Shown here: piece after piece, positions 5,818-18,122 of the stretch
Numbering within the stretch: position 1 is the first letter of the stretch
Layout of the letters: every line of letters starts with the position of its first letter
Assembly: GCA_964652335.1 (NCBI GenBank)
Contig: CAZZDL010000008.1
Location: forward strand, 3,646 to 31,443
Direction of reading: 5' to 3'
Length of the DNA stretch: 27,798 nt
Source: Candidatus Micrarchaeota archaeon
Lineage (GTDB): Archaea > B1Sed10-29 > WALL01 > WAMD01
Notes under the pieces: model-generated
Database searches by the model: none
Told to the model about the DNA's origin: nothing
The model's input: only the letters and a program-made list of their open reading frames with translations
Made by a program: the position numbers and the translations under genes

Positions 5818-5875
5818 ATATAAACTTTCCGATTTTCCGACTATTTTTATAGAAAATCAGTCGGTTTTTCGGAAA
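5818..5875. repeat. 58-bp palindromic element, copy 1
   Basis: ATATAAACTTTCCGATTTTCCGACTATTTTTATAGAAAATCAGTCGGTTTTTCGGAAA, identical to 7101-7158. Confidence 0.97.
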
Positions 5876-5886
5876 GTTAGATAAAG

Positions 5887-7077
5887 TTAAAATGCTGACA
5901 GGGTAATTAATTGTCTTGGCTTTATGATAATTCCATTAAGCTTCATATTTAATAATTGTTTTTTAGTTTTACTCTCTCCACCAACCTCAACCAGAAATAT
6001 TGTCTTTCCTTTTCTCACAATATAATCTGGACTTCGCTTTGCTCCTTTTATAGTGTTAACAGTGTACCCTCTGTTTATCAAAGAGAAAACAGCTATTTCT
6101 TCCCTAACAGCTCCTAAATCAGCATCTTCACCCAGTTCCTCACATACAGCTATTCTCATTGCTGGGTGGGAAAACATCACCTTCGGTTCCCCTCTAACTA
6201 ATTTTGGCCCCTTTCCATACGGCCTCACTATCCTAATAATCTGCATACTTTCAAGTGTATTTATTATCTCGTACGCAGTGTACTTACTTATCCCAAGATT
6301 CTTACTAGCGGAGTTTACGCTGAATTCCCCAAGAGAACTTGTAGCTATCATGTAGAGCATGGATTCCATCGCCGTTATTTTCTCACCACTCATATTAAGA
6401 TAGTACAAAGCGTCTTCCCTTATAGACTTCTTAATTGAATTGAAAACTGCGCTAGATACATTTTTATTAAATGAAAAAAACAATGGTAGCCCTGATCTAA
6501 TGTATTCATCCCAATTACGAGATAATGAAGGATTTCTAGCAATGAACCTTAATGTAGCATCCGGGTCTTTCCACACGTCATCGCTAGCGATTACCTTTGT
6601 CCCATCCATGAGATAAATAAACTCAGACAAAGAAAGAAATTCCATATTAAGTTCTGTCTCTCTTCTGCCCGCAGAAAAAACTAAAGGAGCACTCCCAGAA
6701 ACAACAAAACTAGCGTTTGGATTCTCATCATACAAAGCTTTAATATGTGACCTCCAATCTATAAACGTATGTGCCTCGTCTATGAGTAGTATGTCGTAAC
6801 CCCTTTCTATCGCATCTGATCCTATCTGATACAAACCTTCTCGTTTTACTTTGGGATTATCTGCATTTATGTATATACTCCTTTCGCTATGCTCACCAAA
6901 TAGCTGAAGCAACAAGGTAGTTTTTCCTGTTCCTCTAAAACCCCTAACTAATTTTATTCTAGGCTCGGAACCTAGTTTACTATTTATCTTGTGGAAGATC
7001 CATCTCTTCCTAAATTCCTTCACTAATTCATATAGTTTGAAACTATTCTCCCTAAGCCAATCTATTGAATCTGACAT
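5887..7077 (-). CDS. AAA+ ATPase, AAA_14/DUF4143 family, with C-terminal wHTH and PD-(D/E)xK-like region
   Basis: Walker A GFRGTGKTT, Walker B ILLIDEAH, VSGSA, AGRR; C-terminal PDYIV..LVEVG. Confidence 0.88.
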   Translation of the reverse strand: MSDSIDWLRENSFKLYELVKEFRKRWIFHKINSKLGSEPRIKLVRGFRGTGKTTLLLQLFGEHSERSIYINADNPKVKREGLYQIGSDAIERGYDILLIDEAHTFIDWRSHIKALYDENPNASFVVSGSAPLVFSAGRRETELNMEFLSLSEFIYLMDGTKVIASDDVWKDPDATLRFIARNPSLSRNWDEYIRSGLPLFFSFNKNVSSAVFNSIKKSIREDALYYLNMSGEKITAMESMLYMIATSSLGEFSVNSASKNLGISKYTAYEIINTLESMQIIRIVRPYGKGPKLVRGEPKVMFSHPAMRIAVCEELGEDADLGAVREEIAVFSLINRGYTVNTIKGAKRSPDYIVRKGKTIFLVEVGGESKTKKQLLNMKLNGIIIKPRQLITLSAF

Positions 7078-7100: not shown

Positions 7101-7158
7101 ATATAAACTTTCCGATTTTCCGACTATTTTTATAGAAAATCAGTCGGTTTTTCGGAAA
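7101..7158. repeat. 58-bp palindromic element, copy 2 (contains the BRE/TATA of the ATPase gene)
   Basis: Identical to 5818-5875. Minus strand CGGAAAGTTTATATA lies ~24 nt upstream of ATG 7077. Confidence 0.97.
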
Positions 7159-9625: not shown

Positions 9626-10033
9626 CTAGAATACTTCTTTTATCTTTCCTTTTACCATCTTCTCTATTCCGATACTAACATCTTCCGGAACCTCTATTAC
9701 CAATGCCTTCCATTCAATACCCAAATCCATGGCTGCCTTGAGTCGCCTGTGGCCGTCAAGTAAAATCAGCTTATTTCCCTTTTTCAAAAGGATAACAGGA
9801 GTATCATATCCATATGGGATCGCCTTCTTCACTCTTTCCACCTTCTCATTGAAGGTAGCTTCTTCCTCTATGCCTGGATAGGTGTAATAAACCTCCTCAA
9901 TGTCCTTTGGAGAAAGAATGATCTCAGATTTTTCTATAGGTATTTCTGGGTATATCTTCTTGTAGTATTCAACAAGCCTTTCAAAAAGCTTTTTCTCTTC
10001 ATAGTCCTGTATAAGCTCTTCCATAATCACCAC
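9626..10033 (-). CDS. Stand-alone ParB/sulfiredoxin-fold protein
   Basis: GYDTPVIL..LILLDGHRRLKAA motif; no HTH; lies 10 nt upstream of valS. Confidence 0.85.
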   Translation of the reverse strand: MVIMEELIQDYEEKKLFERLVEYYKKIYPEIPIEKSEIILSPKDIEEVYYTYPGIEEEATFNEKVERVKKAIPYGYDTPVILLKKGNKLILLDGHRRLKAAMDLGIEWKALVIEVPEDVSIGIEKMVKGKIKEVF

Positions 10034-10095
10034 TAATGCTGAAATTAGGTGACAATTGATTTTAATATTTTTCCCTAATTAATGCTCCTTAACTC

Positions 10096-11904
10096 TCACT
10101 TATATCTCTTTGACCCCCTAGTCCGCCTACTGATCATTTCTAACTTTTTCAACACAGATAACTTTCCCTCACCTGAAATCTTCTTTACCCAGAATATACT
10201 TTCGTCTACCCCGCATATATCCTTCCGCCCAAGCTGTTTCAGGGAATAGCCCTTTTTCATAGGTAATTCTGTGTAAAGTTCATGAGCAACTCTAGGGTTT
10301 ATGCTCTCCCACCTTCTAACTTGAAAATTAGCCGGAGTGATTGCCACTCTTTCATAACCATTTCTCTTAGCATACTCTTCCACAGCATCTAGCAGAACCT
10401 CTGCCCATTTTTTCAATCTCTTTTTGAGGGACGGCCTTACCTTAACATGTGGTGAGAATATACTTGACTGAATGTTTATGACATATAATGTTTTGCCAAT
10501 TGGATACAACTTTACATACCCTAAGGTATCTGGGAAATCAATGGCTCTATCCCAACTAATGCCCTCTAGATTTTTTGGAAACATGGCTAGAGTTATTATC
10601 TTTCTTAGATACTTTTCCTCCTCTATGGCTGGACCTACAGCTAGCCTCACAATAGAACCAGTTGGTAGTCTAGATTGTTTCATTGCATGGAGTTTTTGAA
10701 TTAAATCATATATGTCTGCATAACTCATTTCCTCTTTTATCAACCTTTCCAGCTCTGGGACATATGCTCCTTTCTGCCTAGCAACCTTGAGCAGCTCATC
10801 CTTGCTAATCATATTCCTCTTAGGAATCAAAAATGTTCCATCCTTAGTTTTAATCTTCGTTTCAATCATTTTTCCTTTGATTATATCCTCTTTCAAAAAC
10901 CGCAATATTCTGTCAACGCTCCCCTTGTTCACGATCCATTGCTCCTCCTCCAAAAGAGGAGGTACGTTCCAATAACTCCTTGTGTATATCCTTATCATTT
11001 GTTGAAGGTCTTTTTCGCTGTCAAACTCGCGCCCGCTCACAGATCCTCCCATAACCCTTTCCCATGCTTTTTTCTTTTCTATCTCTTCCTTTTCATAGTC
11101 CTTTATCTTATCAAATTCATCAGGGCTCATGCTCTGGAATCTAGAAGAGAGGTTGATTATTAACTCAGACATTTCATTGGGATCCTCTTCACCTGAATTA
11201 ACTTTTTCCAATAACTTCCTTGCTAGCTTTGGATTCTTCGCAATGGCTGTCGCCCATGTATACTTGTAATCCTCAGGTATCTTGTACTTTTTCAGTATAT
11301 CTACTGCCTCTTCCAAAGGAGCATAATTCCCTGGCTCACACATAAGCAAAACTGTCAACAGAAACGGAAAATGATTCCTTGGCAGTTTATTCTTCTCAAT
11401 CAGATCAACGAGCTTGTTTACAGCCCATTTCTTGGATGTAAGGTATGAAACAGTAAGCTGAAAACTGTTCTCATCAATGAACCCCTTCTCCCAGAGATCA
11501 ATGGCCCTCTTGACTTCCTCCTCTGTCTCTGGCATGAAATTTACGACTCTCGTGAAATACTCTGGAGGGATACCAGTATTTGCTACATAATCAACATGCT
11601 CTTTCTTCACGTCTTTGAAAAGATAAAACCTATCGTAAAGGTGTTCTGGTTTTATTTTTCCCTCTTTGATAAGCTCTATTATCCTCTTCTTCGCCCCCTC
11701 ATCTTTAAGATTTATGAGCGCGAACCAGACAGGGATGATTTGAGTAATGTCAAACTTCTTCTCTTTTATCAGATCAAGAAGCTCCTTTTGATGTTCTACC
11801 CCAGTAGCAGAAATCAATTTGTCGGCAAACTCCCTATCAAAACCCATCTGAATTAGACGTTCTCTGGCCTTGTCCAGTTTGGTCTTTTTCTGCCTTGAAG
11901 GCAT
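10096..11904 (-). CDS. Large hypothetical protein: helical N-terminal region, possible GNAT-like C-terminal domain
   Basis: 602-aa ORF. C-terminal TLGYVKL..LYVINIQS..WAEVLLDAVEEYAKRNGYERVAI..LY..LP.K.GY pattern. Confidence 0.7.
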   Translation of the reverse strand: MPSRQKKTKLDKARERLIQMGFDREFADKLISATGVEHQKELLDLIKEKKFDITQIIPVWFALINLKDEGAKKRIIELIKEGKIKPEHLYDRFYLFKDVKKEHVDYVANTGIPPEYFTRVVNFMPETEEEVKRAIDLWEKGFIDENSFQLTVSYLTSKKWAVNKLVDLIEKNKLPRNHFPFLLTVLLMCEPGNYAPLEEAVDILKKYKIPEDYKYTWATAIAKNPKLARKLLEKVNSGEEDPNEMSELIINLSSRFQSMSPDEFDKIKDYEKEEIEKKKAWERVMGGSVSGREFDSEKDLQQMIRIYTRSYWNVPPLLEEEQWIVNKGSVDRILRFLKEDIIKGKMIETKIKTKDGTFLIPKRNMISKDELLKVARQKGAYVPELERLIKEEMSYADIYDLIQKLHAMKQSRLPTGSIVRLAVGPAIEEEKYLRKIITLAMFPKNLEGISWDRAIDFPDTLGYVKLYPIGKTLYVINIQSSIFSPHVKVRPSLKKRLKKWAEVLLDAVEEYAKRNGYERVAITPANFQVRRWESINPRVAHELYTELPMKKGYSLKQLGRKDICGVDESIFWVKKISGEGKLSVLKKLEMISRRTRGSKRYK

Positions 11905-15777: not shown

Positions 15778-15793
15778 AAACCTTACGTAGAAT
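15778..15793. repeat. 16-bp direct repeat, left
   Basis: AAACCTTACGTAGAAT, identical to 18107-18122. Confidence 0.93.
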
Positions 15794-15812
15794 CGGGAAG
15801 ATATAATCTTGT

Positions 15813-15831
15813 GGATAAGTTTTTAATATAA
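15813..15831 (+). promoter_or_regulatory. BRE/TATA promoter of the cassette
   Basis: GGATAAGTTTTTAATATAA; predicted start ~15848-15851. Confidence 0.6.
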
Positions 15832-15849
15832 AAAAACCAAAAGATAGAC

Positions 15850-15907
15850 GGGGGTCATGAGGCGACATTTCGTCTCAACTAAGGGGGACGTCGCCTCGCA
15901 CACCCCC
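15850..15907 (+). ncRNA. Candidate structured RNA / 5' leader (long bulged hairpin)
   Basis: GGGGGT(15850-55)/ACCCCC(15902-07); TGAGGCGA(15858-65)/TCGCCTCG(15891-98); CATTT bulge; CGTCTC(15871-76)/GGGACG(15885-90). Confidence 0.65.
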
Positions 15908-15920
15908 ATGGAGGGAGGAT

Positions 15921-17126
15921 ATGGGGGAAAATGATGTCTACAAAGAATTACTGATACGCTCATTCTCAACAGCATTCCCGGAGTACAGCGATTTTGAAAA
16001 GCTACAAACACTCCTTACAGACGACTACAAAAGATTCAAGGAACTTATCAAAATGCCCATAAATGATAATTTCAAGATAGCCGCATTGTTAATGTTGATA
16101 CAAAAGAAAAAGGATACTAATCTTGTCCTTAGCACGTTAAACAGTATGAAACCACAAGGTGCTCTGAGGTTTTTCCAGCTTTGCATAATGGTAAACAAAA
16201 CTGGCAAGACAATTAGAAAACTCTTCAGAGAATACATGAAAGATAAAGATGAAAGATTTGTTATATTGAACAAAAGGAGAATAGCGTACCTATCCAGAAA
16301 GTTTCATCTGAAGAGAGAGCCTAGGAACGAAGATATGTTGACGTTTTTGTTTGAGAAAAAAGCTAAAAAAGGAACTATATACTACGATTACCTAATGGCA
16401 AAAAAAAGTATGAAAAGTCTTAAAAAACTTCCATTTTCAATTGGGATTGGGTTTCTAAATCAGCTATCACTGAAAAAACGAAAAGAATATCTTAAGAGTA
16501 TAGCTAGGAAAATAACTCCAAATGAAGCGGTAAAGTACTTCAAGCTATTCAAAAGAGAGGGAATCGATGTCACGAAAAAGCTTGAAAGTGCGGATCCATT
16601 AAAGGTTTACAAGCTCTACAAGCTTGGACAGGTAAGCATTGATACGTATATGAAGTCAGTAGCCAACTTTGCAAGGAAATTGAACATCCCAAAGGAAATG
16701 AAAAATGCTGTATTAGTCTACGACAACTCAGAGAGCACAAGATTCACAGTCGGCTCAAGGTTCAATGATATCCTCCTCGTGTTGGCAGATACACTCTCAC
16801 ACACAATTCCTGTGTACCTCGGAAATGGGAAGGCATTTGATAGAACCCACAGGAAAACAGAATACAAAACAATACTTGTTCCTGGGTTGTGGAAAGCAGC
16901 TAAAAAAAGCGACATAGTAATAATAGCAACAGATGGATACGAAAACTTCCCCGCGTTCTTGACAGATATTATATTCAACAAGTACAACAATTCGGGGAAG
17001 AAGAAATTCATCCAAATAATGCCCGAAAATGGAAGAAGAATAACAGGCATACCTGCATTTGGGATAAGGAATACAAATCAGATAGAGCCAATCCTAAAAA
17101 TAGCAAAAGAGGTGATCAGAGATTAA
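15921..17126 (+). CDS. Basic helical domain + C-terminal vWA domain protein (TROVE/Ro-like architecture)
   Basis: MIDAS-like AVLVYDNSES (DxSxS), T in YKTIL, and IVIIATDGYEN. Lys/Arg-rich helical N-terminal ~260 aa; GGAGG RBS. Confidence 0.75.
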   Translation: MGENDVYKELLIRSFSTAFPEYSDFEKLQTLLTDDYKRFKELIKMPINDNFKIAALLMLIQKKKDTNLVLSTLNSMKPQGALRFFQLCIMVNKTGKTIRKLFREYMKDKDERFVILNKRRIAYLSRKFHLKREPRNEDMLTFLFEKKAKKGTIYYDYLMAKKSMKSLKKLPFSIGIGFLNQLSLKKRKEYLKSIARKITPNEAVKYFKLFKREGIDVTKKLESADPLKVYKLYKLGQVSIDTYMKSVANFARKLNIPKEMKNAVLVYDNSESTRFTVGSRFNDILLVLADTLSHTIPVYLGNGKAFDRTHRKTEYKTILVPGLWKAAKKSDIVIIATDGYENFPAFLTDIIFNKYNNSGKKKFIQIMPENGRRITGIPAFGIRNTNQIEPILKIAKEVIRD

Positions 17127-17823
17127 AAAAACAATATTAATCAAAGAGTTATTGAGTAATTTTAATATTAGGCTTATTGATCCACAGTTTTATGGAGACT
17201 ACGTTTTTGTGCCAGCAGTATCAGACAAAAGGACGAATCCTGGCAGAAAAAGGATAGTAAAAAGATCCCAGGCGAGAAGCATAATAAGATTTGCTAAACT
17301 AATAAAAAGTATAATCGGTACCTCAACCATGAGAAATAGAAAACACTTCATTGAACAGTTTATGGAACACACAATATCAAGAAAGAAAAAGAATCCCACA
17401 ATGCAAGAGCTATTCAACGGGAGGGACGTCCACCCAAACCAAGCTGGAGGAGTCCTGCTCAAAAAGACAATGAAGCTCTACTACGTTCCATCAGTCATCT
17501 ACATATCAAGTAACCCATCTAGAAATCCATTCAAAAGCTACATACCAAACGAAGAGATAAAATTTGGATTACTAGATGAAACAATTGGAATGTACAGCGA
17601 CATAAACAGTGAACTTAGCAAAGCCAATGACTACGTTAAGGGTTTACTGAGTGAAGCTGAAAATATAAAAAAGCAGATATATGATATGGAGATTGAGGTG
17701 CTTGATCACACATACAAAGGAACTACAATGAAAGCAGATGTGCAATACAAAAAGCATATACACAAGCTCAATGGAATATTCGCAACAGGTCCAAAGGGAA
17801 TGGTGATCTATCTAAAGCATTAA
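17122..17823 (+). CDS. Hypothetical protein, ARPP-like (start either ATT 17122 or TTG 17152)
   Basis: RLIDPQFYGDYVFVP and DVHPNQAGGVLL resemble my recollection of ARPP-family motifs (PQ..G...VP; HP.Q.G). Frame is open from 17116. Confidence 0.55.
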   Translation: MKKTILIKELLSNFNIRLIDPQFYGDYVFVPAVSDKRTNPGRKRIVKRSQARSIIRFAKLIKSIIGTSTMRNRKHFIEQFMEHTISRKKKNPTMQELFNGRDVHPNQAGGVLLKKTMKLYYVPSVIYISSNPSRNPFKSYIPNEEIKFGLLDETIGMYSDINSELSKANDYVKGLLSEAENIKKQIYDMEIEVLDHTYKGTTMKADVQYKKHIHKLNGIFATGPKGMVIYLKH

Positions 17824-17836
17824 TGGAGGGATATCA

Positions 17837-18100
17837 ATGGAAATTGATGCCATATATCAAGAGCATGGGAAGATTTATGTAATTGTTAGTATGGAACCAA
17901 AGGAGGCGAAAAAAAGCAAGATAAATCTGACATCAGACACCATATTCATAAACCAAGACTATTTGGTTCCATTAACAATAAAGAGTGACAAAAGGTCTTT
18001 ATACATAAAGATACCTCCCAAAATGCTTAAGGCTTTTCCAAAAATAATTAACGGGGCTAAATGGACAACAGACGGGAGATATATTATAATAAAACCCTAG
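17837..18100 (+). CDS. Small beta-rich protein; Hsp20-like N-half, AbrB/MazE-like C-half
   Basis: GGAGG RBS. IDAIYQEHGKIYVIV..KINLTSDTIFI, then RSLYIKIPPKMLK..W..DGRYIIIKP. Confidence 0.65.
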   Translation: MEIDAIYQEHGKIYVIVSMEPKEAKKSKINLTSDTIFINQDYLVPLTIKSDKRSLYIKIPPKMLKAFPKIINGAKWTTDGRYIIIKP

Positions 18101-18106
18101 ATTGGC

Positions 18107-18122
18107 AAACCTTACGTAGAAT
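18107..18122. repeat. 16-bp direct repeat, right
   Basis: Identical to 15778-15793; forms part of the inverted repeat CCTTAC-N9-GTAAGG (18110-18130). Confidence 0.93.

Follow-up and report, generated by a model that had tools for sequence, protein, structure and literature searches.

What is a set of three small genes, framed by two copies of one short repeat, doing between two housekeeping genes of a micrarchaeon? The question is raised by a window of 27,798 nucleotides (nt) from Candidatus Micrarchaeota archaeon (GenBank assembly GCA_964652335.1, contig CAZZDL010000008.1, positions 3,646 to 31,443), in which the cassette spans positions 15778 to 18122. The cassette is best read as a variant of the Ro60/Y RNA kind. 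Structure prediction supports a Ro60/TROVE fold for the product of its first gene, and in the family around this protein the Ro-like gene is linked to an ARPP gene and preceded by a conserved, covarying structured RNA.

The cassette is bounded by an exact 16-bp direct repeat, identified from the sequence and a genome-wide repeat count. The left copy lies at 15778..15793 and the right copy at 18107..18122, 6 nt past the stop codon of gene 3 and 19 nt from that of acs; no strand is assigned to either. The exact 16-mer has only these two copies in the whole genome of 821,209 bases (96.8% complete) and one more place with two mismatches. Among 20,000 random window pairs of matched size and spacing, the longest common stretch did not exceed 14 nt. 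Between the copies lie a TATA-like box, a hairpin and three plus-strand open reading frames (ORFs) of 401, 223 (TTG start) and 87 amino acids, whereas the flanking dys and acs genes (Pfam DS and AMP-binding) are both on the minus strand. Sequence, ORFs and repeat count bear out the layout given in an earlier sequence-only reading, namely a direct-repeat-bounded cassette with TATA box, hairpin and three co-oriented genes antisense between acs and dys. The same cassette is present in a second assembly (L002, 99.86% identical).

Gene 1 encodes a predicted Ro60/TROVE-fold protein

Gene 1 (15921..17126, plus strand) encodes 401 residues. Its AlphaFold2 model, computed from an input of 23 sequences, has a predicted local distance difference test score (pLDDT) of 89.9 and a predicted template-modelling score (pTM) of 0.85. 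In the model, a basic helical ring (approximately residues 1–255, with 57 Lys and Arg versus 27 Asp and Glu) is closed by a vWA domain. Foldseek found 13 matches at E ≤ 0.001, and the 12 listed are all Ro60/TROVE proteins. In VIA-align, 373–387 of the 401 residues were superposed with a root-mean-square deviation (rmsd) of 4.3–5.3 on phage (Z 18.3), Deinococcus (Z 16.7) and vertebrate (Z 16.4) Ro60; the next entry (Z 13.1) matches the vWA domain only. Structural matches in the Atlas have template-modelling (TM) scores of 0.77–0.82, in agreement with the Ro60 fold. The MIDAS, or metal-ion-dependent adhesion site, is complete (D268, S270, S272, T317 and D338), with the motifs DNSES and TDGYEN present; for Ro60/TROVE the pattern DxSxS...T...D is given in the accessible part of PMC11277228. 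The model thus supports a Ro60/TROVE fold with a vWA MIDAS. The Ro-like assignment, first made from the basic helical region and the vWA motifs, extends in these structural comparisons over the full length, N-terminal ring included.

The same relationship is invisible to the family libraries. Neither gene 1 nor any of its 22 relatives (22 of 22) matches Pfam TROVE (PF05731) or vWA_Ro60, and gene 1 was not recognised in searches of Pfam, PHROGs, NCBIfam, PADLOC and the PDB sequences. Two homologues (P0004 and P0005) with 51–52% identity share its short length and keep all MIDAS residues. Their profile reaches 21 proteins at E ≤ 0.001, and gene 1 is approximately 70–120 residues shorter than most relatives. 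In a quick tree of 50 rows, a long branch (2.93 changes per column; 100 in the Shimodaira–Hasegawa-like approximate likelihood-ratio test, SH-aLRT) separates gene 1 and its two close homologues from the other rows, and this tree does not name a donor lineage. Gene 1 is a long-branch member of an unnamed, Pfam-invisible Ro-like family.

No full-length match to gene 1 was found in 60 archaeal relatives, in the 30 other genomes of the phylum (a set of 31 small genomes) or in samples of 201, 201, 2, 1, 5 and 40 genomes from other phyla. Five weak partial matches in other archaea (E approximately 1e-4 to 1e-3) were discounted, being either noise or restricted to the vWA domain. It weighs against the preferred reading given below that the loci of P0004 and P0005 were not found among the viral and genome contigs searched, and that the metagenome collection (27 of 64 parts) yielded only the second assembly of the source organism.

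Ro-like genes of the family are linked to ARPP

In plasmid and phage records, Pfam hits place an ARPP-2 or ARPP-1 gene directly downstream of the Ro-like gene. An ARPP homologue is nearby in 85 of 86 family loci, 80 of which, almost all from actinomycetes, were the top-ranking ones among 343 genome hits, and in 78 of 80 viral loci (the best 80 of 111, duplicates included); kin and duplicate contigs inflate both counts, which has to be held against them. A reverse search starting from ARPP found a Ro-like gene in four of four new viral loci. Strong matches to the Ro-like family occur in 6 of 201 Myxococcota genomes. Across the family the Ro-like gene is linked to ARPP. A literature search covering largely open papers in their main text found no publication linking TROVE/Ro with ARPP or describing the RNA treated below.

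Two plasmids show additional genes within or beside the pair. On a Nostoc plasmid (L011:7454-8193), an insertion of XisH/XisI genes separates the Ro-like gene from ARPP-2. On an Alkaliphilus plasmid (L012:4318-8486) a TerD-domain gene is followed by a Ro-like/ARPP-1 pair, with AT-rich handle-like sequences between.

A conserved structured RNA precedes the Ro-like genes

Upstream of the bacterial Ro-like genes there is a conserved stem of approximately 80 nt, here called the handle RNA and defined as a stem P1, an internal loop, a stem P2 and a U-rich C(A/C)G motif. A strict pattern finds it in 75 of 82 loci; six of the seven misses have visible variants and one is truncated. It is visible by eye in four of five further Myxococcota loci. 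In an alignment of 18 rows, one of which was dropped for a long insert, 97.1% of the cells are paired and five pairs show two-sided change, a level reached by none of 500 shuffles (17 non-redundant rows; relatedness inflates such counts). The family thus has a conserved, covarying upstream structured RNA. A search of 47 loci with covariance model R2 yielded 44 matches, which include nine loci not used to train it; 17 loci had no match. An earlier model, R1 (17 rows, 15 of them actinomycete), was discarded as too narrow, since it missed all 39 plasmid and phage loci.

Phage loci carry arrays with a shared 5′ signature (RRRACU, stem, U-rich CAG) and variable inserts, many of them tRNA-like as judged by eye and RNAfold. 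Large-phage arrays with whole or partial tRNA-like inserts were noted beside Ro-like and ARPP genes at L101:8860-9320, L105:5259-5590, L114:5390-5600, L120:5450-5550 and L128:4700-5160. In L101 and L102 the arrays sit downstream of ARPP.

The hairpin of the cassette as a candidate handle RNA

A GC-rich hairpin lies at 15850..15907 (plus strand). Its predicted fold consists of a 6-bp P1, an internal loop, a 9-bp P2, a 5-nt bulge and a 5-bp P3, with 20 pairs in all; the folding energy is −32.6 kcal/mol, a stability also attained by 4 of 200 shuffles (z −2.68). The predicted promoter, a TATA-like box (TTTAATAT, 15822..15829, plus strand), lies 28 nt ahead of the first paired base, a spacing that we take to agree with archaeal promoters.

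Position and layout of the hairpin match the family handle RNA. Relative to the bacterial members, the pair closing P1 is swapped from A-U to U-A, and within P2 G-C is replaced by A-U and U-G by G-C. The P1 closing pair also varies among Myxococcota members, one of which has the U-A of the window. A third covariance model, R3, was built without the window, yet after the resemblance had been noticed; it puts the hairpin at the top of its matches within the window, with 7.7 bits on the plus strand and in the expected register. Controls that keep shape and composition reach the score of the hairpin against a bacterial-type profile in 2 of 1500 cases.

A number of results speak against membership. 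The R3 hit has an E-value of 7.6, and the reverse strand scores 7.4 bits. R1 gave a match on the opposite strand only (E 7.7), R2 had no hit on the hairpin, and none of the three models found it genome-wide. A two-arm scan ranks it 95 of 2080, with a score of 18.5 versus mostly 28–49 for the best site in RNA-carrying loci. Scaled by arithmetic to the 127 nt of the expected RNA position, this rank and the R3 E-value correspond to approximately 0.01–0.02. Against a phage-heavy profile, 228 of the 1500 controls reach the score of the hairpin. Furthermore, the ACU common to all rows of alignment A7 is missing from the hairpin, as is the long outer stem. On the balance of these sequence comparisons, the hairpin probably belongs to the family as a divergent, minimal handle RNA. 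The sequence-only reading proposed a cognate small RNA; an upstream structured RNA is borne out for the family, and the membership of this particular hairpin is borderline.

The hairpin shares the layout of Y RNAs, as it lies on the same strand as the Ro gene, within 4 kb of it, and its 5′ and 3′ ends are paired. The tRNA-like domain is missing and the insert is a 5-bp stem-loop; no tRNA is present on the contig of the cassette. The YrlA-type motif GNCGAAN(0-1)G is located near the 5′ end according to the available text of PMC4201824. The hairpin contains GGCGAC, which fits five of the first six positions of this motif and then departs from it. The hairpin belongs to no Rfam family, and the label of a classical (YrlA-type) Y RNA was rejected on these two grounds.

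Alternatively, the hairpin could be a cis-acting leader, with the Ro-like protein binding its own mRNA by the ribosome-binding site and limiting its own synthesis, so that no free small RNA would be made. The stem ends 2 nt before a purine-rich, Shine-Dalgarno-like stretch recognised in the sequence (15910..15919, plus strand) and 13 nt before the start codon, and the bacterial members are single copies directly ahead of the gene. The plus strand has no terminator-like site between hairpin and gene 1, which favors a leader and counts against a separate RNA. The phage arrays fit discrete RNAs instead: tandem copies of the same handle, which differ in their inserts, lie as far as 1.5 kb upstream, and one locus has them downstream of ARPP. 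A leader appears unlikely.

Genes 2 and 3

Gene 2 (17152..17823, plus strand) encodes a 223-residue orphan at the place that ARPP occupies in the relatives. It has no homologue and no match in Pfam, PHROGs, NCBIfam or PADLOC. Its single-sequence model (pLDDT 34.6) is unusable. MAFFT aligns gene 2 collinearly with ARPP-1 proteins on the invariant columns Q12, P21, Q97, G99, P122 and Y220, including the Q-x-G motif, while the barrel, which in ARPP bears the conserved Cys and Gln, is largely gapped; gene 2 contains no cysteine. In an ordered-block test with three block sets, its score was matched by 35, 67 and 19 of 1000 shuffles and by 18, 42 and 13 of 550 genome ORFs. As a control, a true ARPP-2 came out close to gene 2 on the three-block set (−4.8 versus −6.1 for gene 2) and was higher on the other two sets. 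Against an ARPP origin, gene 2 fails all hidden Markov model (HMM) and profile tests versus ARPP (in one of them, 62–89 of 1000 shuffles). An end-free global alignment score barely moved with the profile and was dropped as uninformative. Taken together with position, these tests tip slightly in favor of gene 2 descending from ARPP, possibly as a shortened core without the Cys/Gln barrel. The ARPP-type label of the sequence-only reading is true of the family, and for gene 2 itself it is borderline. A complex prediction of gene 1 with gene 2, suggested in that reading, scored 0.02 and is evidence neither for nor against an interaction.

Gene 3 (17837..18100, plus strand) is an ORF of 87 codons without a family match, an orphan like gene 2. 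Profile and family-library searches gave no AbrB, MazE or Hsp20 match. The Hsp20 label was rejected, as no search returned a match. The second half may have an AbrB/MazE-like pattern, which no search supported. The Hsp20/AbrB-like assignment of the sequence-only reading has no support from the searches.

The state of gene 2 also bears on whether the cassette works at all. It might be a decaying passenger: gene 1 would have kept its fold, the RNA and gene 2 would be remnants or else orphans of unrelated origin, and no working particle would form. The long branch of gene 1 and its reduced length are compatible with decay, as are a gene 2 without homologue, confident model or cysteine and the failure to find the cassette in any of the phylum's 30 other genomes. 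On the other hand, the two homologues at 51–52% identity are equally short and retain every MIDAS residue. All three frames of the cassette are open, and in the predicted fold the stems still form 20 pairs. We regard decay as improbable, to about the same degree as a leader.

Less probable still is an antiviral or toxin-antitoxin-like unit that acts on its own. In this view RNA damage would be sensed by the ring and its RNA, free gene 2 product would act as a growth-arrest effector and gene 3 would be an antitoxin or repressor. A possible AbrB/MazE resemblance of gene 3, unsupported by any search, counts in its favor. The insertion is patchy and repeat-bounded, relatives reside on plasmids and phages, and ARPP is known from conflict systems (PMC9503650, as far as its accessible text goes). 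Against such a unit, PADLOC gave no match and gene 2 has neither a recognisable catalytic motif nor the ARPP cysteine. Moreover, the family is retained in large phages, and this agrees with counter-defence or repair as much as with defence.

Insertion and mobility

The cassette is likely a horizontal insertion and may be mobile. An insertion agrees with the bounding repeat, with the lower GC content (0.34–0.37 versus 0.41–0.45) and with the lack of matches in the archaeal genomes searched. At third codon positions its GC content (0.38–0.42) is inside the range of the housekeeping neighbors (0.36–0.45), so that no foreign mark is seen there. Parts of the cassette are held by seven sequencing runs, five of them labelled hydrothermal vent metagenome; no RNA run is among those listed. 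Further points stand against insertion and mobility. The joint expected of an empty site was not found in the seven runs searched. In a genome of the same genus, where the contig begins within dys and acs was not found, no empty site was seen either. None of the three cassette genes matches a recombinase family. With neither an empty site nor an encoded recombinase in evidence, the repeat could be a scar instead of an active site. An 835-nt contig of run X3 stops exactly at 15793, the last base of the left repeat, in a branch-point-like manner; no right-flank junction is listed, and the contig was not counted as an empty site.

The window contains other features of note. A second repeat-bounded cassette consists of a gene with AAA_14 and DUF4143 (5887-7077) between the two copies (5818-5874 and 7101-7157) of an exact 57-bp direct repeat, which shows dyad symmetry within itself. 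An exact 56-bp repeat (1-56 and 562-617) lies within the gene of an Ig-like-domain surface protein at the start of the window and is probably a domain duplication. Adjacent ORFs of 135 and 602 amino acids ahead of valS (9626-11904) have no real Pfam match.

Proposed working

Our preferred reading, a tentative one, is that of a reduced Ro60-type ribonucleoprotein (RNP) module, likely inserted horizontally. Its ring would bind the handle RNA and, together with a non-catalytic remnant of ARPP, would retain misfolded or damaged RNA for enzymes of the host. A single promoter would yield both RNA and mRNA. The basic helical ring, closed by the metal-binding vWA domain, would bind the short stem-bulge RNA made just ahead of it, holding the P1/internal-loop/P2 handle in the manner of Ro60 with Y RNA, and the handle may gate the ring or tether a partner. 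In bacteria and phages the full-size partner would be ARPP, a predicted sugar- or ADP-ribose-acting enzyme, and phage handles show tRNA-like inserts. In the window the insert appears reduced to a 5-bp stem-loop, and gene 2, which has no cysteine, is likely a non-catalytic ARPP remnant. With a shrunken insert and a cysteine-free gene 2, the particle would be a scaffold or chaperone. Under stress or infection it would capture damaged or misfolded RNA and hand it over to enzymes of the host, with the exosome or RtcB as the most plausible recipients, and gene 3 may be an autoregulator. The sequence-only reading had recorded that no rtcB is present; RtcB and two RNase PH genes do exist elsewhere in the same genome.

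A bolder view is possible, with more doubt than the preferred reading. Bacteria, large phages and small-genome archaea may share a second, Pfam-invisible branch of Ro RNPs, with its own class of handle RNA carrying swappable inserts and with ARPP as dedicated effector. The cassette would be the minimal archaeal form, consisting of a 58-nt RNA, a 401-residue ring and an enzyme-dead ARPP scaffold, and would divert damaged RNA towards RtcB or the archaeal exosome. Such a family, in which a Ro ring goes with ARPP and an RNA class of its own, would place ARPP in a context that can be tested and bring a new effector to Ro biology. As the smallest version seen, and one from a vent organism, the archaeal cassette lends itself to structural work on the minimum that a Ro ring needs. 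It also allows asking whether the archaeal exosome can replace bacterial PNPase.

Comparison with known systems

With Ro60/Rsr and its Y RNAs (PDB entries 2nvo and 1yvp; YrlA/YrlB, PMC4201824 in its accessible part) the cassette has in common a helical ring, here predicted, that is closed by a MIDAS-bearing vWA domain, and a small structured RNA beside the gene on the same strand; in the phage relatives the RNAs have tRNA-like domains. Unlike Ro60/Rsr, to which its identity is 12–16%, gene 1 has no Pfam TROVE hit and is approximately 100–130 residues shorter. The RNA of the window, unlike Y RNAs, lacks an exact GNCGAAN(0-1)G and matches nothing in Rfam. The constant neighbor in the family is ARPP, not RtcB/RtcA as in Ro60/Rsr loci.

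The best structural match of gene 1 is Ro60 of Thermus phage phiLo (PDB entries 9l5y and 9kop; PMC12135203), with 373 aligned residues at Z 18.3, rmsd 4.4 and 13% identity. The phiLo RNAs Yrl1 and Yrl2 also lie upstream of the gene, and the available text proposes use of a host nuclease, which phage Ro60 is reported to engage (PMC12135203). Unlike the window hairpin, these RNAs carry a CGAA motif; phiLo is a phage of a bacterium, and an ARPP partner is not mentioned in that text. The role of the MIDAS and the effector range of Ro60 are described there as still open, with few animal, bacterial and phage examples understood (PMC12135203).

ARPP is described in the accessible text of PMC9503650 as a duplicated beta-meander with an inserted barrel that holds a conserved Cys and Gln, and action on sugars is proposed. 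The contexts listed there are ARG, HIRAN, WYL and deacetylase, with no TROVE. Gene 2 has in common with ARPP-1 (PF20208) and ARPP-2 (PF22549) its position and some columns outside the barrel; it differs in being approximately 120 residues shorter, cysteine-free and below significance.

The module had been called not described in archaea. This stands for the link of Ro with ARPP, as judged from the literature searched, but not for the Ro component. TROVE/Ro60 genes are known from the Asgard virus Nidhogg (bioRxiv 10.1101/2021.07.29.454249) and from Borgs (PMC11208441), as the accessible parts of these sources state, and TROVE genes have also been reported in jumbo phages. The cassette shares with Nidhogg and the Borgs a Ro-type protein in archaeal DNA that is mobile, or putatively so in the case of the cassette. 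Their genes are annotated as TROVE directly, and the accessible text names no partner RNA or ARPP for them, whereas the present cassette is a 2.3-kb insert between cellular housekeeping genes. Of the two, the family is the more interesting object, and the cassette is its divergent archaeal outlier.

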